NCBI GenBank assembly: GCA_964016885.1
Contig: OZ024740.1
Location: forward strand, 202,182,001-202,246,000
DNA: 64,000 nucleotides
Source: Eledone cirrhosa
Lineage: Eukaryota
Direction: 5' to 3'
The notes beneath the pieces were generated by a model that searched no databases, had not been told where the DNA came from, and worked only from the letters and a program-made list of their open reading frames with translations. Positions 1,900 to 53,970 of this stretch are shown here, piece by piece. Position 1 is the first letter of the stretch. Each line of letters starts with the position of its first letter. A program made the translations under genes and the position numbers.

Positions 1900-3970
1900 T
1901 ATGTGCTGAACATCCTTCTCTATATCTTCCAGTTCAATAAATTTGTTGCTGATTATTTTTGCACAATGAAACAAAGAGATTTGTTTGCAGCCTGGTGCAG
2001 TCTTCTTCTCAGTGGCTGAAGTAATGACAATTCACTTCAAATCCATCCCAGCAGAACAGTGTAATGTGTGTCCAAGATATTGCAAGTGTTATCATTTAAT
2101 ATTTCATAGTAGTATTGAGCCATCTAGATATATCACAGTAATATTGAGCCATCTAGATATATCACAGTAATATTGAGCCATCTAGATATATCACAGTAAT
2201 ATTGAGCCATCTAGATATATCACAGTAGAGCCATCTAGATATATCACAGTAATATTGAGCCATCTAGATATATCACAGTAGTATTGAGTCATCTAGATAT
2301 ATCACAGTAATATTGAGCCATCTAGATATATCACAGTAATATTGAGCCATCTAGATATATCACAGTAATATTGAGCCATCTAGATATATCACAGTAGAGC
2401 CATCTAGATATATCACAGTAGTATTGAGCCATCTAGATATATCACAGTAATATTGAACCATCTAGATATATCACAGTAATATTGAGCCATCTAGATATAT
2501 CACAGTAGTATTGAGTCATCTAGATATATCACAGTAATATTGAGCCATCTAGATATATTACAGTAATATTGAGCCATCTAGATATATCACAGTAATATTG
2601 AGCCATCTAGATATATCACAGTAGAGCCATCTAGATATATCACAGTAGTATTGAGTCATCTAGATATATCACAGTAATATTGAGTCATCTAGATATATCA
2701 CAGTAATATTGAGCCATCTAGATATATCACAGTAGAGCCATCTAGATATATCACAGTAATATTGAGCCATCTAGATATATCACAGTAATATTGAGCCATC
2801 TAGATATATCACAGTAGAGCCATCTAGATATATCACAGTAGTATTGAGCCATCTAGATATATCACAGTAGTATTGAGCCATCTAGATATATCACAGTAAT
2901 ATTGAGCCATCTAGATATATCACAGTAATATTGAGCCATCTAGATATATCACAGTAGAGCCATCTAGATATATCACAGTAATATTGAGTCATCTAGATAT
3001 ATCACAGTAATATTGAGCCATCTAGATATATCACAGTAATATTGAGCCATCTAGATATATCACAGTAGAGCCATCTAGATATATCACAGTAATATTGAGT
3101 CATCTAGATATATCACAGTAATATTGAGCCATCTAGATATATCACAGTAGAGCCATCTAGATATATCACAGTAGTATTGAGCCATCTAGATATATCACAG
3201 TAATATTGAGCCATCTAGATATATCACAGTAGAGCCATCTAGATATATCACAGTAGTATTGAGCCATCTAGATATATCACAGTAATATTGAGCCATCTAG
3301 ATATATCACAGTAATATTGAGCCATCTAGATATATCACAGTAATATTGAGCCATCTAGATATATCACAGTAATATTGAGTCATCTAGATATATCACAGTA
3401 ATATTGAGTCATCTAGATATATCACAGTAATATTGAGCCATCTAGATATATCACAGTAATATTGAGCCATCTAGATATATCACAGTAGAGCCATCTAGAT
3501 ATATCACAGTAATATTGAGTCATCTAGATATATCACAGTAATATTGAGCCATCTAGATATATCACAGTAGAGCCATCTAGATATATCACAGTAGTATTGA
3601 GCCATCTAGATATATCACAGTAGAGCCATCTAGATATATCACAGTAATATTGAGCCATCTAGATATATCACAGTAGCGCCATCTAGATATATCACAGTAG
3701 AGCCATCTAGATATTTCACAGTAATATTGAGTTATCTAGATATATCACAGTAATATTGAGCCATCTAGATATATCACAGTAATATTGAGCCATCTAGATA
3801 TTTCACAGTAATATTGAGTTATCTAGATACATCTTATCCAATACTTGAAAGTTGCTCACTTCCTCAGTCCAAGTAATTTTCAATATCCAGTGGTAGCCAG
3901 ATATTTTTAAAGCTCCAATCTTTCTCATAATACTTCTAGTCATGAGCCATACCTCGCAACCATAATGGAA
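1900..3970 (-). pseudogene. Decayed RTE-like LINE 3' fragment interrupted by the minisatellite
   Basis: Minus strand reads HYGCEVWLMTRSIMRKIG...ILKITWTEEVSNFQVLDKM before the array and LQYLGH...KKTAPG after it, typical of RTE ORF C-termini. Confidence 0.65.
2104..3830. repeat. 29-bp minisatellite GAGCCATCTAGATATATCACAGTAATATT with interspersed 24-bp deletion variants
   Basis: About 60 head-to-tail units read directly. Variants include GAGTC, GTAGTATT and loss of ATATT. Confidence 0.97.
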
Positions 3971-4289: not shown

Positions 4290-5050
4290 ATCATCTTAAA
4301 TGTTTTCCCATACTTGCATGGGTTGGATATGTCTTCTCCACCACATTATCTAACCATATGCTTTGGTCCTTTGTCATCTCCCTCATGAGGTTTGGTTTCT
4401 TGAGATCAGCCTTCACCACTTTTTCCCATGTCTTCTTTGGTCTTCCTCTTCTACTTGGATTTCTTGGCACTTCTTTACCCAACTATCATCCTTCATAGGC
4501 ATCACATGTCCATACCAGAGCAGTCTTCTTTCTAACACACTACATTTGATTCTTCTTAGATCCAACTTTTCTTTCAATGCACATTAATATTTGCACATCC
4601 AGCAAAATATGTTCATCTCGTTTCTTTTCAGTCTTTGAACACTGCAATTCATACACAAGCATCATATAATCTCTTCATTCGGAGCTTTTTCCACCCCTTT
4701 CTCACTCTGGCAACTATGCTTTTGGAACATCCTCCTTCATTACTAATTAGCTCACCTAGGTAACAGTAGTTATTAACTACTTCTTGGGAGCCCTTTGAGC
4801 ATATTAAAACATTTATTTAATGAATGCTCTTACTACTAACTACTTTTGTGCTACATACAAAGTCTTTCTTTTGTTTCAGTGTGCCTGTAATCCCACTACA
4901 TCTCATAAGTATCCTTTATATTGGGTACACTGTATAGAGTTACAACCTATTTATCTGTATATCAAGCATGGCCACTTTCCCCATGTGAGCAGAGTCATGT
5001 CGTCTTTCCTGCTAACTAAAACGTTTAAATTTGCATAATTTACTTTGAAG
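4290..5050 (-). mobile_element. RTE LINE 3' relic
   Basis: RRGRPKKTWEKVVKADLK motif and a (GAT)n tail. Similar relics at about 8790-9205 (+), 12130-12560 (+), 15240-15720 (-), 39360-39760 (-), 39920-40430 (+) and 42500-42630 (-). Confidence 0.75.
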
Positions 5051-7069: not shown

Positions 7070-7260
7070 TCGGTGGTGGATTGGCAGTATCGGTAGAACA
7101 TCGGACAATATGCTTTGTGGCATATAGTTTCATCCTTTTACATTCCGAGTTCAAATTTCGCTGAGGTTAGCTTTGCCTTTCATCCTTCCGGGTCGTTGAT
7201 AAAGTACCAGTAACACACTGGGGTCGATTTAATTAACTTTCCCCTCCCACAAAATTATAA
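7070..7260 (+). mobile_element. tRNA-derived SINE (representative plus-strand copy)
   Basis: GGTGGATTGGCAG...GAGTTCAAAT (A/B-box-like) followed by the core CTTTGCCTTTCATCCTT..GGGTCG..ATAAAGTACCAG, which resembles the Meta-SINE domain. Many other copies, e.g. 9895-10110, 13278-13462, 14531-14710, 23525-23690, 24925-25097, 46485-46860. Confidence 0.75.
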
Positions 7261-18504: not shown

Positions 18505-21500
18505 CAGCAATCCGGACTGCCCGGCACTATAAAAGACAGATTCTATAAGACACTGATGCTCACTACCTCCCAAATAACCGACAGTGACTATATAATTATT
18601 GCAGGCGACCTAAATGGTCACGTTGGACAACATTGTGACGGCTACGACGAAATCCATGGAGGCTATGGGTTTGGTACTAGAAATGAGGAAGGCTCCAGAA
18701 TCCTGGAATTCTGTGACGCAAATAACCTAACTATCTGTAACACTAACTTAAAAAAACGTGACAATCACCTGATCACCTATAGATCGGGGAAACACACAAG
18801 CCAGGTAGATTATATCCTTACCAGAAGACGTGACAGAGTGTCTGTTGTAAACACTAAATCCCTCCCCCATGAAGAATGCACCTCCCAACATACTGATAAT
18901 TAGCGACCTAATAGTCAGGACAAGATGTACTAGACAGCAGAAGAGGACTATCCTCAGGAGAAAAATATGGAAGCTAAAGGACCCCACAGCCAGAAATAAA
19001 TTTAAAAGCATACTACTTGATGCTTTCGACAGTAAGGAAGAGCAATTAGAGTCGTACAATATAGAGGAACAGTGGGAATTCCTGAAAGCAAACCTGCTGA
19101 TGGCGGCAGACAAAGACTGTGGCTGGAGCAGGCCTGTAGGCAGGAGGAGAGTAATATGGTGGTGGAACAGTAAGGTAGAGGGGTCAATTAAGGCCAAAAA
19201 GCAGGCTTGGAAAGTATGGCGGGATGGGGGAAGTAGAGAAGACTATCAAGTGGCCAGGAGGGAAGCTAGGAGACAAGTGTACTTCGCAAGAAGGGAAGCA
19301 GAGGAAAGAAAGTTCAAGCATGTTCTACAATGCGAGGACCAAAAACGTGAGGTGTTCAGGATTGCTAGGCAATGTGTCAAGGAAAACCGTGATATTGTCG
19401 GGGAGAAGTGTGTACTTAACGATGATGGCGTACTTGCCATCACCGACGCTGATAAGAAGGTAGCTTGGAAGTGTCACTACGAAAGGCTACTAAATGAGGA
19501 GAATAAATGGGAGAAAGACAGTCTCCCCCACATCGACCCAATAGAGGGACCAGCAGTGTTAGTCGAGGGTAGTATAATAAGTAAGGCAATCAAAGATATG
19601 AAGACGGGTAAGGCGGCTGGGCCTTCGGAAATAGTTGCTGAGATGCTGAAGGCATCTGGAACGGTGGGACACACCATGGTCACCCGGATAGTTAACCAAG
19701 TCGTACAGAATGGGGTTGTTCCAAAGGACTGGCGTAGCAGCATCATCGTTAACTGTTATAAGAGTAAAGGAGATGCCCTAGATAGGAGTAACTATAGAGG
19801 CATTAAATTAATCGACCAGGTCATGAAGGTCACGGAAAAAGTAATAGCGCAACTAATCAGAGAGAGAATTGATCTAGATGAAATGCAGTTCGGGTTTGTG
19901 TCAGGCAAAAGTACCACAGACGCTCTTTTCATTGTACGACAACTACAGGAGAAGTACCTAGCTAAAAGTAAACCCCTATACTTAGCTTTTGTCGACTTGG
20001 AGAAAGCCTTCGACAGAGTCCCCCGTTCCATTAGCTGGTGGGCTCTTAGAAAACTAGGTGTTGACGAATGGCTTGTGAGAGCTATACAAGCCATGTATAA
20101 AGAAACAGTCAGCAAGGTTAGAATTAACAACGAATATAGTGAAGAGTTTAGCGTAAAAGTTGGTGTCCATCAGGGCTCTGTTCTTAGCCCCCTACTATTT
20201 ATTATTGCCCTTCAGGCTATAACAGAGGAGTTCAAGACCGGCTGCCCATGGGAACTCCTATACGCAGATGACCTAACTGAATCAATGGCCGAGTTAGAGA
20301 AGAAATTCCAAACATGGAAGCAAGGCCTAGAATCAAAAGGCCTTAAAATTAACCTGGCTAAGACTAAAGTTCTAGTTTGTAAGAAAGAAAATAAGGCGGC
20401 AGTCCCTTCCGGGAAATGGCCATGCTCAGTGTGTAGGAAAGGCATAGGTAGAAACTCCATTTTATGTCCCAAATGCAAAGTATGGGTGCATAAAAGATGT
20501 AGTGGGATCACAGGTAAGCTAACTAAGAACATAGATTTTACATGTGGCCGGTGCTCTGGTGCAATAAGTAGCAGCAAGTGCCCACAAAATACTAGCTCTT
20601 TCAACTGCGCAGAGGGTTCTATAGAAATAGTGGACAGCTTCCGTTACCTGGGTGACAAAATCAGCAGTGGGGGAGGGTGCTCTGAAAGTACAGTAGCTAG
20701 AGTCAGAACTGGATGGAAAAAGTTCAGAGAGCTTATACCACTATTAGCCGCTAAAGGGTTCTCCCTAAAAATGAAAGGCAGGTTGTATGATGCCTGCATA
20801 CGAACAGCAATGTTGCATGGCAGTGAGACCTGGGCATTGTGTGCAGAGGATATACGCAGACTAGAGAGGAACGAAGCTTGCATGCTCCGCTGGATGTATA
20901 ATAGTAATATACGTGAACGGCAAAGCATAAACGAACTAAGGAAAAAATTAGAAATAAGAGGGATCAGATGTTGTTTACTCGAGAGAAGGCTACGTTGGTA
21001 TGGTCACGTGATGCGCATGAAAGACGATAGCTGTATAACAAAGTGCAGGGCAATAAAGATAGACTGTAGCCACGGAGTAGGCAGACCCAGAAAAACCTGG
21101 GATGAGCTGATAAATTCCGACCTCACACACTTACACCTCTCCAAGACAATGTTACTGGACCGAGACCTTTGGCGGTACTCAGTAATAGAGAAGACCCGCC
21201 TTACCTAAATACAAAGTAACACCTACTATAGTCAGTAGGCATCTCTAACAAAATACACCCCTGTCCCACTACCCCCACCCCATCCACACCGCCCCTTTCA
21301 ATGTAAAGTTATGTTGGTGCCACAACATCCAGGCCGAAACAAATGAGATCGTGTAGGTGTCACGACAAAAAAACACACAGTCCACGCTGTAATGTGGCCG
21401 TGTAGGCAACACGGTAAAAACCTCCCAGCCCCACACTGTAAATGTGGTTGGTGTTAGGAAGGGCATCCAGCTGTAGAAAACCCGCCAGACAGTCCTATGC

Positions 21501-24500: not shown

Positions 24501-25133
24501 TTTGTATGTTGAAGAGGATAAAACTGAAGTGAAATACAACCAGTGTAAGTGTGTGTGTTGCTATTAGCAGTATGACCTGTTCTGATAGGCACGGACTGTG
24601 TGGTTAAGTAGTTCACTTCTCAACCACGTGGTTTCAAGTTCAGTCCCACTGTGTGGCACCTTGGGCAAATGTCTAGTGAGTGAAATTTAGTGTATAGGTA
24701 TATATGTGTGTGTACATGTGTATTTTTTACGTTTAGAGTGTGTAATTTAGTGGTTCAACAAAAAATAAATATTGGTGTTGATATGATTGACTAGATTCTT
24801 GGAAGGTGGTACCCCAACATGGCCACAATCTAATGACTGAAACCAGTCAAAGAATAAAACACACAATTTCTCATCAAGAATCTTGCAAAATAAACACAAA
24901 ACTGATGATAAACTAATAGTAATTGTTTCTACTTTTGGCACAAGTCCAGCAATTACCCCCAGTGCATTACTGGTACTTTATTTTATCGACCCCAGAAGGA
25001 TGAAAGGCAAAGTTAACCTCAGCAGGATTTGAACTCAGACCATAACTATGCTGCAAAGCATGGCGTCCGACCTACCGATACTGCCAATCCACCACCCTTG
25101 ATAAACTAATAATAGTGATAGTTAAATACTCAC

Positions 25134-26136
25134 CAATTCGGTTAAAATTAAGAGCATTCACACAGCCATTATGGTACTCCATCTTATACTGCAAGGTTAA
25201 ACGTTGCACCATTTGTAAACTTGAGTTAACCTTTTCTCTAAAAAGACTTGGAGGAGTTTTTGTTGAATGTCCAAACTCACGAGAGCGGAGATCATATATT
25301 GCTTTCCAATTATGTTTCGGTATTTTGTCAGAATCATAGTCCATATCACTTTCATCCTCATCTTCTTCATCATCAACATCATCTTCCTCATCTTCGTCAG
25401 ATGAAGAAGATGAAGAAGACAACAAAGAAGACAGCTTTTTACTGCCCGTCTCTTCGTTTTTATCATCATCGTCCTCAACATTGTCATTGAGATCTTCGTA
25501 ATCCATCTCAGCTTTACCACCTTCATCACTATTAACAGGTGAGGCTAGGATGGGTTTCCCCTTTTCTTTCTCTACACATTCAGAAGTGCCATCTTCAGTG
25601 TTCACAGTATCTAAGTCCATCTTTTCTGCACTACACACTAATTTACACGAGCCTTCTTTATCATTCAGCTCAGAATCCTGCACATCCAAAGATGGTAAAT
25701 CTTCCTCATCTGACACAGAAACTTTTGATTTGCCATCAAATTTTATATCACCAACAGAATTTGTGAAAGAGCAAGCAGCGCTGTCTGTCAGTGACTCACT
25801 GACACTTTCACTACAGTCTGATAGAATTGGTCCTTCCTGTGCACTTGTGCTTGCCGGAGATTTCTCAAAGTCAATCCCACTGTCATCTTTTTTCAATGAA
25901 GGTAGAGACAGATCAGGTTCATGGGAGATTTTTTCCTCCATAATTGCCAGATGAGTGGGGATTTTAGAAGTGGCATTATCATTTTTCGCCTGATCTTCGC
26001 TTATTTTCTCTGTAACATGGTTATCTGAAGTCTGACTGGAGTCATGAAACTTGTCTTCATTGTTGAAGTGATTATTGCCTTTTTTATTGTCTACATCACA
26101 GTCACTGGAGCTTATGACTAGACTAGATTCAGCCAT
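25134..26136 (-). CDS. DCAF8: DCAF8 first coding exon (acidic low-complexity N-terminus plus start of WD40 repeat 1)
   Basis: ORF MAESS...DEDEEDD...KHNWKAIYDLRSREFG...VQRLTLQYKMEYHNGCVNALNFNRIG, resembling the DCAF8 'HxGCVN' start. Phase-1 donor GTGAGT at 25133. Probable acceptor (ttttctttttatag) at 26341-26340, so about 200 nt of 5' UTR lie in the same exon. Confidence 0.92.
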
Positions 26137-27366
26137 GATGGTGAACTGGAGTCTAGTTTGTCACAGATTATCAGATTATCGAGAGATAAACCAAACAGAA
26201 CAAAAGTTAGGATACATTTGTGTGCTGTGGTTATAAAGCTGTCACAATTACAGATTCAGTTTTTCCAATAGCCTTTCTGTAGCTGGGGGCCTCCAGAACA
26301 CATAGTATTCATAATGACATCTGGAGTATAAAATTCAACCTATAAAAAGAAAAAGTTATACATTTAAAAAAGTTAGTTTTTATAAAATGCACCACTACAC
26401 TCAATAAAGTGGCAGTGTTGGTGCCACAATAAAATACATGTAGTACATTTGCTAAAGTGGTAGCGATGGTGCCACAATAAAATGTACCAATTACATTCTA
26501 TAAGTAGCAATGCTGGTGCCACAATAAAATGTGTGATCATTCTGATTCTTAAGATGGAGCTGTGAAGGCTTTGAAATGTTAATATACACAGATTTAGGAA
26601 AGCTACATTTCCAAACAAAGCATAAACAACTAATAAGGAAATAAGAAAAATCCTTAATAAAATGATCAAACAGGAGCACAGTTGCATTTTCAATATAACA
26701 TGTTTGAAAGAAACGCTGTTCCATATTTATACACACACAGATATATATACTGTAAAGTGGTCGTTTTAGTGCCACAACAAAAGGTGCCCAGTCCACACTG
26801 TAAAATGGGCATATTGGTGTCACAACAAAAAGTGCCCAGTCTGCACTGTAAAGTGATCATTTTGGTGCCACAATAAAAAGCACAGTCCACACTGAAAATG
26901 TGGTTGGCGTTAGGAAGGGTATCCAGCTGTAGAAACCAAGCCAGAAACAGTTCTGTATGAACAAGACAGTCATCTGATCTGACTTGTCTCACAATGGGAC
27001 AATTCGTCTAACCCATACTTGCATAGAAAAATGGATATTAAACTGATATATATATATATATATATATACTAAGTCATCACTGAGAAAGTTCACAGTGAAT
27101 ATCATCAGAATTAAAACCATAAAAAAATAACTAATCTAAATATTACATTTCTCCAACAGTATTTTACCAAACTGTTTTGTAAAAGACAAAGGTAGTAGCT
27201 CCTTTTGGCTTCCTGACAACACTTATATTATGAAATATTTGGCATAAAAACAAACTGCTTTGCACTTTGGAGTTATTTGTATCAGTTTCCAAACCTTAAC
27301 CTTCAATTACGACATCAACACACGCAATGTTATCAATTCCTTCATCCCTGATTTAAGAGAGTACCC

Positions 27367-46412: not shown

Positions 46413-46484
46413 TATATATATATATATATATAATGATTTCTAGTATACCGATACTGCCAATCCACCATATATAATGATTATAAT

Positions 46485-46900
46485 TGTTTCTACTTTTGGC
46501 ACAAGGCCAGCAATTATCCAGTGCACTACTGGTACTTTATTTTATCGATCCCGTAAGGATGAAAGGCAAAGTTAACTTCGGTGGCATTTGAACTCAGAAT
46601 GGCAAGGGCCGTAACTCTATCCTTCAAAGCATGGCGTCCGATTCTCTACCCATACTGCCAATCCATGATAATTGTTTCTACTTTTTGGCACAAGGCCAGC
46701 AATTACTCAGTGCATTACTGGTACTTTATTTTATCGACCCCGTAAGGATGAAAGGCAAAGTTAACCTCAGCGGGATTTGAACTCAGACCATAAAGGGCCG
46801 TAACTCTTTGCTGCAAAGCATGGCGTCTGACCCTCTACCGATACTGCCAATCCACCGCCATGATAATAATTGTTTCTACTTTTGGCACAAGGCCACCAAT
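46485..46900 (-). mobile_element. Tandem array of tRNA-derived SINE copies
   Basis: Two complete head-to-tail copies (about 46485-46665 and 46675-46860) plus fragments, same core as 7070-7260. Confidence 0.8.
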
Positions 46901-46927
46901 TACCTGAATATATTCACTCATATACAT

Positions 46928-47322: not shown

Positions 47323-47353
<31 letters not shown>

Positions 47354-47360
<7 letters not shown>

Positions 47361-49310
47361 GTTTGAATATGTGTAATAAGGCCAAAACAATGCAGGTATG
47401 GACATAGAAAAAAGGAATGCAATAGTGAAAGATATTGATGAGAATTCGTCTTTCACCTTGAATTTATTTAAATGTCCTTAATTTTCGAGATAATATCTCT
47501 TCTTCGGAGGGAAGTAAAGGTCTCAAACCAGCGTCTTTAAATCTCTAGCCAAGCCATGCTGACCGGAAATAGTATAGAGTATCTGTTCTAACTCTAATAT
47601 CAAAGAATTAAAATTAGGTGGATAAAGAGTAGTCTCCCTTTAAGAGGGGTTTGTTTAGGGTTTTTTTTAAATTTTTTTTTTAAATTTTATATACGTGCCT
47701 GTATATGTGTGTGGGAGAATGCATGAAGGTGTAGGTATGTGGGTGTGTGTGTGTGAGTGTGGGAAGATAGGGCTAATCGTAAAAGTGGGGGGTAGGTGTT
47801 ATCTGGTGTTAGAACTGGTTTTGTGTGTGTATGTGTGAGAGAGAATAAGTGGAGGTGTAAGCGTGTGTGTGTGCGCGTGCGTGTGTGTGGGGTGTGTAAA
47901 AATGGGGCTAGAGGCCCTATCAGGTTATAAATTGGGTGTTGAGCTCTAGTCTATTATTGATTGGTGGATGTGTTCTATCTATAATAAGTGCTTCCTTAAT
48001 TCTAAGATTGCCGAGGTTTCTTTCCTTAGTTTCTATCCTAACTGTTATGTTTTTATCGGTGTTTTTGCATTTAACTAGGTGTTTCTTAAATGAGGAAGCG
48101 TTAGTATTGAGGTGTTCTTTTATTCTGTTGTTGTTTCTTCACTGAAGTGTGGGAGCTTCAGGAAACAAGTGTTAGTGCCTCGGGTGTGGTGTCCTCTGTT
48201 CTTTCTGGCACGGTTTGTGGTGGATGTCGTGTATCCGTTCAGTTTGAGAAGAAACAACAACAGCCATCCGCAGAGCCATCAGACGAGAGGGACTGGATAT
48301 CCAACTGGCCCACTCGGGTCCTTCTCTGCGCGGACGGCTGGCCAAGAGACACTCCACCAGACATGACAACTGCTGCAGACTAGCCAACTGCCCCATCAAC
48401 GACACAGACCTATGCCACCAGGCTTACGTAGTATACAGACTAGAGTGTGACAAATGCAACAACTTCTACATAGGTAGCACCACCAGACCACTCCACATAA
48501 GAATAAAAGAACACCTCAATACTAACGCTTCCTCATTTAAGAAACACCTAGTTAAATGCAAAAACACCGATAAAAACATAACAGTTAGGATAGAAACTAA
48601 GGAAAGAAACCTCGGCAATCTTAGAATTAAGGAAGCACTTATTATAGATAGAACACATCCACCAATCAATAATAGACTAGAGCTCAACACCCAATTTATA
48701 ACCTGATAGGGCCTCTAGCCCCATTTTTACACACCCCACACACACGCACGCGCACACACACACGCTTACACCTCCACTTATTCTCTCTCACACATACACA
48801 CACAAAACCAGTTCTAACACCAGATAACACCTACCCCCCACTTTTACGATTAGCCCTATCTTCCCACACTCACACACACACACCCACATACCTACACCTT
48901 CATGCATTCTCCCACACACATATACAGGCACGTATATAAAATTTAAAAAAAAAATTTTTAAAAAACCCTAAACAAACCCCTCTTAAAGGGAGACTACTCT
49001 TTATCCACCTAATTTTAATTCTTTGATGTTAGAGTTAGAACAGATACTCTATACTATTTCCGGTCAGCATGGCTTGGCTAGAGATTTAAAGACGCTGGTT
49101 TGAGACCTTTACTTCCCTCCGAAGAAGAGATATTATCTCGAAAATTAAGGACATTTAAATAAATTCAAGGTGAAAGACGAATTCTCATCAATATCTTTCA
49201 CTATTGCATTCCTTTTTTCTATGTCCATACCTGCATTGTTTTGGCCTTATTACACATATTCAAACGTTTATACCTCATTACACAATGCTTCAAGTGAACT
49301 ATAACCTCCT

Positions 49311-49313
<3 letters not shown>
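47354..49313 (+). mobile_element. Penelope-like element 3' portion with 773-bp inverted duplication, flanked by (TA)n
   Basis: Arms 47354-48126 and 48500-49272 are near-identical inverted repeats. GIY-YIG ORF on plus. The right arm extends 41 nt further to the 3' end. Confidence 0.93.
48251..48706 (+). CDS. Penelope-like GIY-YIG endonuclease C-terminal ORF fragment (no start; missed by ORF track)
   Basis: Manual translation ETTTAIRRAIRREGLDIQLAHSGPSLRGRL...CCRLANCPINDTDLCHQAYVVYRLECDKCNNFYIGSTTRPLHIRIKEH...HL...NLRIKEALII...INNRLEL..*. VVY/YIG, catalytic R and E, and CCHH-type residues are present. Confidence 0.9.
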   Translation, partial: ETTTAIRRAIRREGLDIQLAHSGPSLRGRLAKRHSTRHDNCCRLANCPINDTDLCHQAYVVYRLECDKCNNFYIGSTTRPLHIRIKEHLNTNASSFKKHLVKCKNTDKNITVRIETKERNLGNLRIKEALIIDRTHPPINNRLELNTQFIT

Positions 49314-49406
<93 letters not shown>

Positions 49407-51266: not shown

Positions 51267-53090
51267 CTACATTTTAAATTTATATTTATATTTAAACGTT
51301 GAGTTCAATCTATGTCTGCAGCAACTGAATAAATTGTTCCTTAAATTAAGGGAATTTTTGGACTTTAATATAAAGAATATTTCTTCAATACAAAGATCAC
51401 AATTTTCTGAAGAGGAATTGAAAGGAGTAGCTTATGAAATAATATTCCAAGTCATCGAATATTTAACATTATCTCGTTTTAGGTCCCATAGTAGGCTAGA
51501 TAGCGAAGTTGAAGATTTTTTGTTTGGATCTGTGAAAGAATTTTTATGATTATTGAAGCGAAATTTAAATTCTGTAGAGGTAGAACCAACATAGTTAAAT
51601 GAATTTAAATTAGTTTTAGCATTACAATTGTACACTACATTTTTAGCTAAGCAGTTGTTATTTAACGGACAGTTAGATTTATTTCTACAGTTACAGTTAT
51701 TCAATTGAATATTGCTTGGGTTATTATTGGTATTTTGGTTAGGTTTTAAATTTCTATTATTAATTCTATTAATATTTTGTACTAAATTTTTGGTGGACGA
51801 GTAAGTTAATTTTATAGTGTGTCTATTAAAAATTGAGTAATATTTATGTGTTCTAGGGAAGCGTTTGTCAAGAGCTTTAAAGAATAGTTTAGCAATAGGG
51901 GTTTTAATATTTAGTGAGAAAGGGGGAGCAAACCATAATATATTTCTAGTTCTATTTCTTTTTCGGCTTTTGGAATTATTGTAATGTTTTCTATTATAGT
52001 TGTTAAAGTTGTTACCATAATTAAAATTGTTATTATTTTGGTTAGTTTGCTTATTATTATTATTATCAATGTATTTAATTTTATTTCTATATCCAGCTCT
52101 ACCTAACGCTTCGTTGTAATACTGCGCTTTTTCATCAAATATATTTTTATTAGATGAAATTCTTGAAATTCTTTCTTGAACAGAGTTCACTATAGTATTT
52201 TTAACAGATCTGGGGTGATTAGAGTTAAAATTAACATAATTCAAGTTCTCATTTAGTTTGTGAAATGGATAATGAAGACATGTGTTGAGATTTAGTGTTA
52301 CGTCAAGAAAATTGACTATTTTATGGTTATTCTCTATTTCTACTTTTAGATTAAGGTAATTAAAAAATTGTATAATTTGTTTTCTTTTTCTATTTAGTTC
52401 ACAGCTATTATTTTCTATAAGTAAAAGCATGTCATCACGATATAAGCCTCCGGTTACACCTGGTATTTTTCTATGTAGCGAATTAACTATAAATAGGCCC
52501 ACAAGGTCCGTTACCTGAGCTGAGTCTGATGATCTCATAGTTATGTCGAAATTATTATTTCTATCTGCCCTAGTCCAGAGTTGGTTATTAAATTCTATCA
52601 ATGTTTTCCTTGCCGATAATATAATGTGCATTTCATTGCTAGTTAGGTCTGTATGTTTAAATGCGTAATTTAGTGCCTTATTCGGTAGATTAGGAGTGAT
52701 AGATGAATAGTAGTTAGCAATATCCAGCTGAATAAACTTATTATTATAATTATATTTAATTTCTTTAAACCAATCGATAACCTCACTAGTCCCTTTCCAT
52801 AATTTTAAGTAAAATAAATTAGGTAAGTTTTTAATTTGTTGTATTACCCTGTCTAGAATATTTTTGCTAAGTTTGCCCAGGTCAGATTTAGATGGTGCAA
52901 TTAATCTGACTGGTAAATCATTTTCAAAGTTTCTTTTGTGATCCTTCATATTGATTTTAGGTTTCCTAGGCATGAAGGGTTGTGTTTTATTCTCAATGTC
53001 TAATTCATGCATTATACAAGATGCATCTCTATTCAGTTTTTCAAGTTCGTCCTTATTTGCTACCTTGTACTTTTTCCTTAGTTCTTTCAA
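51267..53090 (-). pseudogene. PLE RT + GIY-YIG ORF with one nonsense codon (TAA at 51434-51432)
   Basis: FIQLDIANYYSSI, GGLYRDDML, VNFLDVTLNL, SNHP, CNCRNKSNCPLNNNC, VVY...YVGST..FKFRFNNH. After the TAA the frame continues ATPFNSSSENCDLCIEE...LNLRNNLFSCCRHR to TAG at 51269-51267. Confidence 0.92.
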
Positions 53091-53094
53091 TATA

Positions 53095-53970
53095 AGGTCG
53101 TTAACAGACAGTGTTCAAAGAGTGGTTAGAGGCTGCGTCCGATGTCAGTCCATTGATCCCGCTCCGGGTGTGCACGAAACGGGAAGCCTCCTGGTGGATC
53201 GCGACTGGAAGCGATTGGCGGTGGATGTAACACACTACCGACAAGGAACATACCTCTCAATGGTCGACTGTGGACCGGGGCGGATGGCGATATGGAGGGA
53301 GATGAAGACTGGAATGGCTGAGGAAATCACGCGGACGTTGAGATAGGTGTTCTTGGAGCGGGGCCCTGTGGTCGAACTGCTGATGGACAACAGCGCAGCG
53401 TTCCTCTCGGAGGCGCTGAGGGAGATGCTCGATGGATGGAAGGTGGACCATTTCTTCAGAGCAGTGTACAGGCCGAGGGGAAATGGAATCGTGGAGCGAC
53501 ACCACCGGACGATCAAAGCAATGGCGGAGCGGGGCCACATCTCACCAATGGAGGCAGTGTTCTGGTACAACATGTCTCCTCGGGTGGGACAGGTTGAGGA
53601 ATCGGTGCCACACAGAGCAGTATTCAGATACAAGTGGCGGCACCCGTGCACGCCACCGCAACGGCCAGTGGAGAGAGAGAATGCATTCGCGCAGGTGGGC
53701 GAAGAAGTCTAGGTTAAGCCCCCAGATGCACGTTGCACATCTCAATGGGGAAGGGGAACGGTGACGGCCGTAAATTCCCAGAACAATGTGTCCGTGGACG
53801 GAGTACCACGTCATGTCCTGGATGTCCATAGAAGTACTGTGTCAACGGACTCCAAGGAAGAGGAAACCCAAACTGCCGCCCCAACACTGTGGAGATCGCA
53901 AAGAAGTCGCAAACCACCAACCTGGACAGCAGACTTTCATATGCAGCAAGACGAGGGGGAAATTTATCCT
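53095..53970 (+). pseudogene. Gypsy-type LTR retrotransposon integrase fragment (internal stops)
   Basis: VVRGCVRCQ (zinc-binding), LAVDVTHY, LMDNSAAF, YRPRGNGIVERHHRTIK (DDE core). TAG stops at about 53344 and 53710. Confidence 0.88.

Follow-up and report, generated by a model that had tools for sequence, protein, structure and literature searches.

A stretch of 64,000 nucleotides of the Eledone cirrhosa genome (contig OZ024740.1, positions 202,182,001 to 202,246,000; hereafter the window) carries an insertion of a Penelope-like element which consists of two arms placed 5'-to-5', the left one being shortened by 238 bp at a common AG. Head-to-head arms are the usual layout of this element family in the genome, and the deletion is one of a recurring class in which a short piece is kept at the join and the following sequence is lost, such that a known architecture is complemented by a modest new regularity. 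The window locus is itself a broken copy to which no function is attached, and its value lies in being a member of a countable class rather than a single copy. Its features are the following, with element coordinates given according to the sister copy L073.

47326..47357, no strand: left (TA)n target tract
47354..48126, minus strand: left arm, outer part, element 2377-3121, which finishes at the tailless 3' end
47476..47510, minus strand: left minimal hammerhead-like motif, mirror image of 49116-49150
48125..48126, minus strand: deletion junction at the common AG, with 238 bp of the element gone and the frame broken
48125..48248, minus strand: left arm, inner piece of 124 bp, element 2017-2140, RT-EN linker (LKLNGY...FSEETTT)
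48125..48140, minus strand: 16-bp duplication, copy of the start of the right arm at 48248-48263
48248..48248, no strand: head-to-head join of the two arms, with 1 base in common
48248..49312, plus strand: right arm, element 2125-3161, 5'-truncated
48248-48706, plus strand: ORF remnant in the right arm with GIY-YIG and CCHH residues
49116..49150, plus strand: right minimal hammerhead-like motif, assigned by sequence features
49273..49312, plus strand: tail of 40 bp, present in the right arm only, which continues into the ATG (49285) of the next ORF unit
49314..49405, no strand: right (TA)n target tract

Read along the window, the L073 coordinates run from 3121 to 2377 and from 2140 to 2017, both on the minus strand, and then from 2125 to 3161 on the plus strand. 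The outer part of the left arm, which contains the C-terminal GIY-YIG half, the 3' UTR and the pLTR, forms with 48500-49272 the near-perfect inverted repeat of 773 bp described in an earlier note based on the sequence alone; as assembled, the repeat has 3 mismatches and 0 gaps, two of the mismatches being located within a poly-A/T tract and one representing a substitution (49028 G, derived, found in 2/112 aligned copies). The plus frame 48248-48706, ETTT...RIKEH...stop, is the C-terminal end of a retroelement ORF with a GIY-YIG match (E=7.6e-6), and the minus piece 48248-48125 is its upstream continuation, as had been proposed: of 197 stretches fetched from the genome, 112 contain a 42-nt probe that matches the uninterrupted form. 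The 16-bp overlap of the inner piece with the plus part (element 2125-2140) and the joining to RIKEH by a common AG, with 238 bp removed, were likewise recovered. Neither window junction occurs in any of the 197 fetched stretches, and no second copy of the AG-junction deletion was found among 40 scored of 1,608 candidates. A spliced intron as the source of the 238-bp gap was rejected, as GT..AG ends are absent on both strands. Both arms carry a C where 100/100 aligned subfamily copies have an A, each arm is the best match of the other among the 40 scored candidates and the nearest-neighbour divergence of the window is 0.29%, which argues that the arms derive from one template lineage and that the insertion is young, in agreement with the earlier note.

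The whole 3.0-Gb genome contains 1,164 exact matches to a 19-nt motif of the element 3' end. From the 197 fetched stretches, 196 loci (window included, two duplicates left out) were mapped onto three real copies which served as references for the subfamilies A (youngest), B (middle, to which the window belongs) and C (oldest). Most loci were obtained via similarity searches that favour long copies; a position-ordered sample consists of 59 of the 63 loci from the first 100 listed motif matches, with 4 unfetched. The copy L073, with a unit of 3,133 bp, encodes an ORF of 860 aa with profile matches to RVT_1 (E=8e-16) and GIY-YIG (E=3e-5), the RT motifs GPKF, DKG and YVDD and, in the endonuclease, the CCHH residues, namely C-x2-C between VY and YxG followed by RIKEH and KKH. 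The CCHH motif defines C-terminal EN+ Penelope-like elements (PMC8557442, available text). Partial tandems that form pLTRs are found in L048, L072, L136 and others. With RT followed by GIY-YIG, CCHH, pLTR tandems, inverted copies and a one-sided tail, the family is a C-terminal EN+ Penelope-like one, whereby the identification as a Penelope insertion holds for Penelope as a group name, not as a clade. The RT-EN linker is cysteine-rich (C-C-x4-C-x7-C), with a spacing that differs from the published CX2-5CxxC (Neptune/Nematis versus Penelope/Poseidon). Both ends of the window insertion lie in (TA)n, which adjoins 213 of the 238 classifiable 3' ends of the family.

A minimal hammerhead-like motif, a putative ribozyme as judged by its letters, is present in each arm. 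It consists of the core CCGAAGA (in the oldest subfamily the canonical CTGAAGA), helix II, GAAA and a palindromic AATT. Core, the base between 9 and 10.1, the G-C first pair of helix II and the palindromic helix III all match the features of the published minimal descriptor (PMC4209133, in the part available), while the fold z-score is -0.19 and an Rfam search gave no hammerhead, only sub-threshold miRNA and snoRNA matches driven by microsatellites. Both arms of L187 have their start at 2998, where the hammerhead is predicted to cut, in contrast to neighbouring cases, whose joins lie at short palindromes.

The family is probably still mobile, as L065, L072/L073 and L076, members of the youngest subfamily, possess uninterrupted frames of about 900 codons and near-zero arm divergence. 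Among 325 5' ends, 12 fall into the 23 bp of element 2006-2028 (about 1.9 expected), a hotspot common to all three subfamilies which includes the 5' end of the left window arm (48248, element 2017). A stable fold was looked for at the hotspot and none was found; it could represent an internal RNA start, a cut or an RT stop. Many short copies begin near 2903-2921 (with the element regions 2897-2947 and 2990-3003 of note), perhaps the transcript start, in which case the RT would begin about 200-240 nt from the RNA 5' end. L052 and L053 (G000:C14, about 300 kb apart) are one insertion at two places, apparently a segmental duplication.

Head-to-head arms are found in 36 of the 59 position-ordered loci, and 121 such joins were counted among the 196 mapped loci. 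All 103 classifiable pairs combine one tailed end (3161) with one tailless end (3121), 18 pairs with a non-standard end being left out. The longer arm, compared in 83 pairs, is the tailed one in 32, the tailless one in 30 and about equal to its partner in 21. The 30 pairs with the longer tailless arm rule out the fold-back of a single cDNA as a general model; as a folding cDNA cannot add a tail that its template is without, two cDNAs are needed, and these were very probably primed from both target ends. The involvement of two cDNAs had been correctly recognized in the earlier note. For the Anolis Poseidon element PAc, the RT has been demonstrated in vitro to start internally at two sites, one on either side of the tail (PMC11167929), and the layout with a one-sided tail has been described for Penelope-like elements (available text of PMC8557442 and PMC3846280). 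The identity of the arms was not attributed to ongoing gene conversion, a reading rejected because older pairs differ by 1-2.6% and the partner arm is the nearest copy in only 35/81 pairs (11 ties).

At some joins, the filler consists of repeated short copies of the adjoining arm end (L072:7079-7119, L049:5130-5144, L149:4923-4949, L052:4405-4443), which resembles iterative realignment by polymerase theta or a telomerase-like RT. In L171, a deletion of about 30 bp is identical in both arms (4792-4802, 7184-7194), which were either copied from one deleted template or one of which was converted. Near-perfect palindromes with arms of 1.4-2.9 kb and centres of 0-52 nt were assembled intact in L239:761-3586, L124, L077 and L152.

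Internal deletions of at least 50 bp were listed automatically across the mapped loci. Of 17 such deletions, 2 are located in the 150 kb of single-arm copies and 15 in the 331 kb of head-to-head insertions, where 11 are no more than 500 bp away from the join and 4 are beyond 1 kb; starts at 0-130 bp inside the stem account for 8/12 versus 2.6 expected for random breakpoints along the arm (P=0.0002, with the interval chosen post hoc). Manual classification separated 81 long inverted insertions into 60 intact long-stem loci and 21 events that keep a short piece at the join and have lost the following sequence, 10 in the manner of the window and 11 with the inverted piece directly adjoining flank DNA. 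Not counted among the 21 are L054, L068, L069 and the outer deletion of L032 (all more than 1 kb from the join and within the deletion listing), L191 (a piece of about 32 bp on a tandem), L188 (a same-strand piece of 40 bp) and L073 and L053 as duplicates of L072 and L052. The kept piece has a median length of 112 bp (124 bp in the window), similar whichever arm is longer, and 19/21 events start 0-380 bp inside the inner stem end, L032 and L052 being the exceptions. The 5' ends of the arms are within 300 bp of each other in 16/21 events versus 10/60 intact loci (P=1.4e-6). Beside the flank-joined pieces, (TA)n is found in 0/11 cases versus 28/64 single-arm 5' ends (P=0.005); these cases have thus lost the 3' end of the arm together with the target tract. 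In 7 of 8 well-anchored junctions, at least 2 bp are shared (19% expected). In a literature search of the main texts of mostly non-subscription papers, no published account of a deletion class that keeps a short piece at the join was found.

Loss of the 238 bp at the DNA level, either during fill-in or by later hairpin deletion, is probable, and a loss from the left arm during outward second-strand fill-in from the central join is tentatively placed first, ahead of a later hairpin deletion and of an RT jump. From the three mapped pieces with their element coordinates, the tailed and tailless ends, the private variant in both arms and the recurrence of the architecture, we infer the following course. 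Two cDNAs would have been copied from the two cut ends of a (TA)n target to give a 5'-truncated insertion, one target end priming at the tail start site with extension of the cDNA to 2125, the other priming 40 nt further in with extension to 2017, a common stopping place. The 3' ends of the antisense cDNAs would join via 1 base, and each would then serve as primer for a copy of the other. Synthesis on the left cDNA would stall after 124 nt, 16 nt past gaining complementarity to the same-strand right arm, onto which the stalled new strand can snap back; either re-annealing by the AG 238 nt further on would follow, or the unfilled gap would be broken at replication and rejoined there. The class as a whole may likewise result from two cDNA arms, single-stranded and each from its own RT start site, which are joined centrally and whose outward fill-in breaks off at a constant point, at a distance of about 100 nt from the join, as soon as the new strand can pair with the opposite arm, a generalization that is advanced with some reserve.

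Such a failure of fill-in covers the window-type and the flank-joined classes, a piece size independent of the arm and events on very young copies. A precedent exists for L1, where incomplete second-strand synthesis leads to 3'-truncated insertions with flank deletion (bioRxiv 10.1101/2024.12.14.628481); the loss of the 3' end and of target features is shared with the 11 flank-joined events, while the L1 cases, as far as the available text goes, are single insertions in cancer genomes with neither inverted arms nor a fixed piece length. On the other hand, events are scarce in the youngest subfamily (2/28 versus 19/53 in the others, P=0.007) and loci with close 5' ends are deleted in 2/7 young versus 14/19 older cases (P=0.07), both of which fit a loss after insertion. 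Furthermore, the tailless arm is the deleted one in 8/10 window-type events (P=0.11; 11/19 events overall, P=0.65), which mildly fits one RT chasing another, and deletions like those of L068 and L069 occur without a nearby join.

A later hairpin deletion, an unlikely reading, would start from an ordinary palindrome with a stem of about 1 kb and a loop of 108 nt. Such is L031 (3763-5891), an intact member of the youngest subfamily with 5' ends at 2008|2131 similar to those of the window and thus a look-alike at another site which models the undeleted state. At a later replication, the palindrome would fold, be nicked near the loop and be rejoined at AG, whereby the spacer is widened to 373 nt. 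Besides the scarcity of events in the youngest subfamily and in the youngest age bin (2/22 versus 19/59, P=0.046), the link of events to close 5' ends agrees with this course, which accounts equally for the flank-joined class. Palindromes in E. coli show asymmetric deletions with one end near the centre (PMC1851657, available text), and in PATRR22 type A breakpoints near the centre and further out are joined at short repeats, as here. However, there is no steady rise with age (2/22, 9/22, 4/18 and 6/19 across the age bins, P=0.10) and none within subfamily B, where the copies with events are no older than the others (nearest-neighbour divergence with a median of 0.83 versus 1.16%, P=0.045), and the very young L128 (0.06%) and window already carry events. 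Arm divergence is equal in events and intact loci (0.68 versus 0.64%, P=0.9). The tightest long palindromes, L239, L124, L077, L159, L160 and L152, with 5' ends 0-52 bp apart and stems of 0.8-2.9 kb, are intact, although in the E. coli work instability disappeared with a spacer of 9 bp. Central symmetry is required for PATRR22 and its repeats measure 6-23 bp, according to the available part of PMC1851657, whereas in the present family the deletions affect loops near 100 nt and spare near-perfect palindromes, and the majority of joins have 1-3 bp in common.

The earlier note had read the locus as two template switches. One of these is the ordinary head-to-head join; the other, as a jump of the RT during first-strand synthesis, is doubtful and less favoured than a loss at the DNA level, as sister events have also lost the arm end and the TA target. 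With both cDNAs on one RNA, the tail-primed RT would displace the left cDNA at 2377, which would re-anneal by AG at 2140 just ahead and then run to 2017, while the right cDNA would stop 16 nt into the new hybrid. In line with this version, the landing point is located 0-65 nt downstream of the 5' end of the partner arm in 10/21 events (window 2140 versus 2125), the preference for the tailless arm in window-type events points in the same direction, one arm of L181 shows two successive skips, the strict pairing of tailed and tailless ends fits one RNA engaged twice, and a PLE RT is able to initiate internally without homology (PMC11167929). A stricter rule, which allowed no landing point upstream of the partner's end, was abandoned because of L032 and L052, which break it. 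A jump of the RT cannot, however, make the 11 flank-joined events with their equal piece size and missing TA tract, and the partner arm extends past the kept piece in 7 events. The left 5' end at 2017 falls into the hotspot of intact arms, as expected if the left arm was first copied whole. A one-sided homology signal is also absent, with scores of extended homology of 4 versus 3 (11 junctions, of which L181a, L086 and L200 are poorly anchored), a comparison which does not separate DNA- from RNA-level jumps.

That the deletion is a background microhomology deletion, or was already present in the template, with its nearness to the join due to chance, is improbable. L068 (2140|2376, with other junction letters) and L069 (2116|2345) have lost nearly the same stretch far from the join, and this A-rich spot therefore deletes unaided; microhomology deletions are common in Penelope copies (PMC3846280, in the portion available), and for the window taken by itself, a position no more than 130 bp from the stem end has a chance of 0.16. 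Against this stand the family-wide excess near the join, with its post hoc interval, and the absence of the junction from the scored candidates and fetched stretches, while a pre-deleted template is contradicted by the undeleted right arm of the same template lineage. An assembly artefact by a fold-back read or a collapsed repeat is highly improbable: among the contigs of 4 public runs, which may be from other individuals and in which rare variants are dropped, none is listed across either junction, one carries the normal uninterrupted joint and the window A at 48165 has zero depth, but a substitution distinguishes the arms, whose ends are two separate, biologically fixed points, where a fold-back read would produce a single mirror point and no tail asymmetry, and the three-part form recurs at nine other loci.

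The earlier note had also invoked a twin-priming inversion of the L1 type. In L1 twin priming, the inverted piece is primed by and adjoins target DNA and the fragments are without overlap (available text of PMC2837659), whereas in the window both arms derive from the element 3' end, overlap by 773 bp and place the middle piece beside element sequence. As 48125-48248 adjoins the 773-bp element arm and not target DNA, L1-type twin priming does not apply, and a left arm of 2017-3121 with one deletion is the simplest reading. The 11 sister pieces beside flank DNA are without a (TA)n target. On the other hand, L1 twin or dual priming, as described in the same available text, shares with the insertion two cDNAs from both target ends, an internal junction of low homology and an inverted piece that ends near the stop of the other cDNA (here 2140 versus 2125). 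Taken as a whole, the insertion operates in the manner of twin or dual priming, except that it starts from two fixed sites close to the element 3' end.

Closest to the present family are the EN+ Penelope-like insertions in which, according to the available parts of PMC8557442 and PMC3846280, the same head-to-head arms, a tail at one end (30-40 bp), a pLTR running into the ORF start, a (TA)n target and microhomology deletions in copies are found. For this layout, self-priming or endonuclease resolution is proposed there, in contrast to the two cDNAs here, and the available text gives neither a strict count of tailed and tailless ends nor a deletion class at about 100 bp from the join, both of which are provided here. 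Anolis PAc resembles the family in its RT start sites, which compare with the two 3' ends 40 nt apart around the ORF start, in its AT-rich target and, as judged by sequence features, in the hammerhead-like motif in the pLTR; second-strand synthesis and repair were left unvalidated and inverted pairs were not analysed (PMC11167929).

How Penelope-like elements complete integration after reverse transcription is an open question (PMC11167929; PMC8557442, available text). If the proposed failure of fill-in is true, about one in four long inverted insertions would record PLE second-strand synthesis, a step still unvalidated. The length of the kept piece, its dependence on close 5' ends and the loss of the TA target translate into predictions that apply to the in vitro PLE system already available or to a cell assay. 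Should the loss be a later one, the same data measure the germ-line erosion of kilobase inverted repeats in an animal. A read-through transcript would, judged from the arms, pair over 773 bp, and a look-up of sequencing runs listed none of RNA; given the 1,164 motif matches and the inverted layout of 36/59 sampled loci, the window locus is not a special source of dsRNA, and the dsRNA idea of the earlier note adds little for it, inverted copies being the majority in the sample.

Several other elements surround the insertion in the window. A long acidic exon-like frame at 25072-26160 (minus strand), at a distance of 21 kb, is the nearest gene-like exon observed; it ends in a WD40-type start and matches the DDB1- and CUL4-associated factor 8 (PDB 9u7t_B, E=1.3e-6) with no Pfam match. 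A second, unrelated Penelope-like ORF remnant of 560 aa is located 2 kb from the insertion (51432-53114, minus strand); it has no Pfam match, and its CxCx5C linker and the lack of a CxxC within the GIY-YIG core correspond to descriptions of the Hydra clade. At 18851-21208 (plus strand), a non-LTR-type RT frame of 785 aa has a PHD-like finger after the RT, and similar frames are found beside several of the fetched loci. Immediately left of the insertion, 46446-46902 consists of two to three tandem copies of a unit of about 189 bp with 88% identity.
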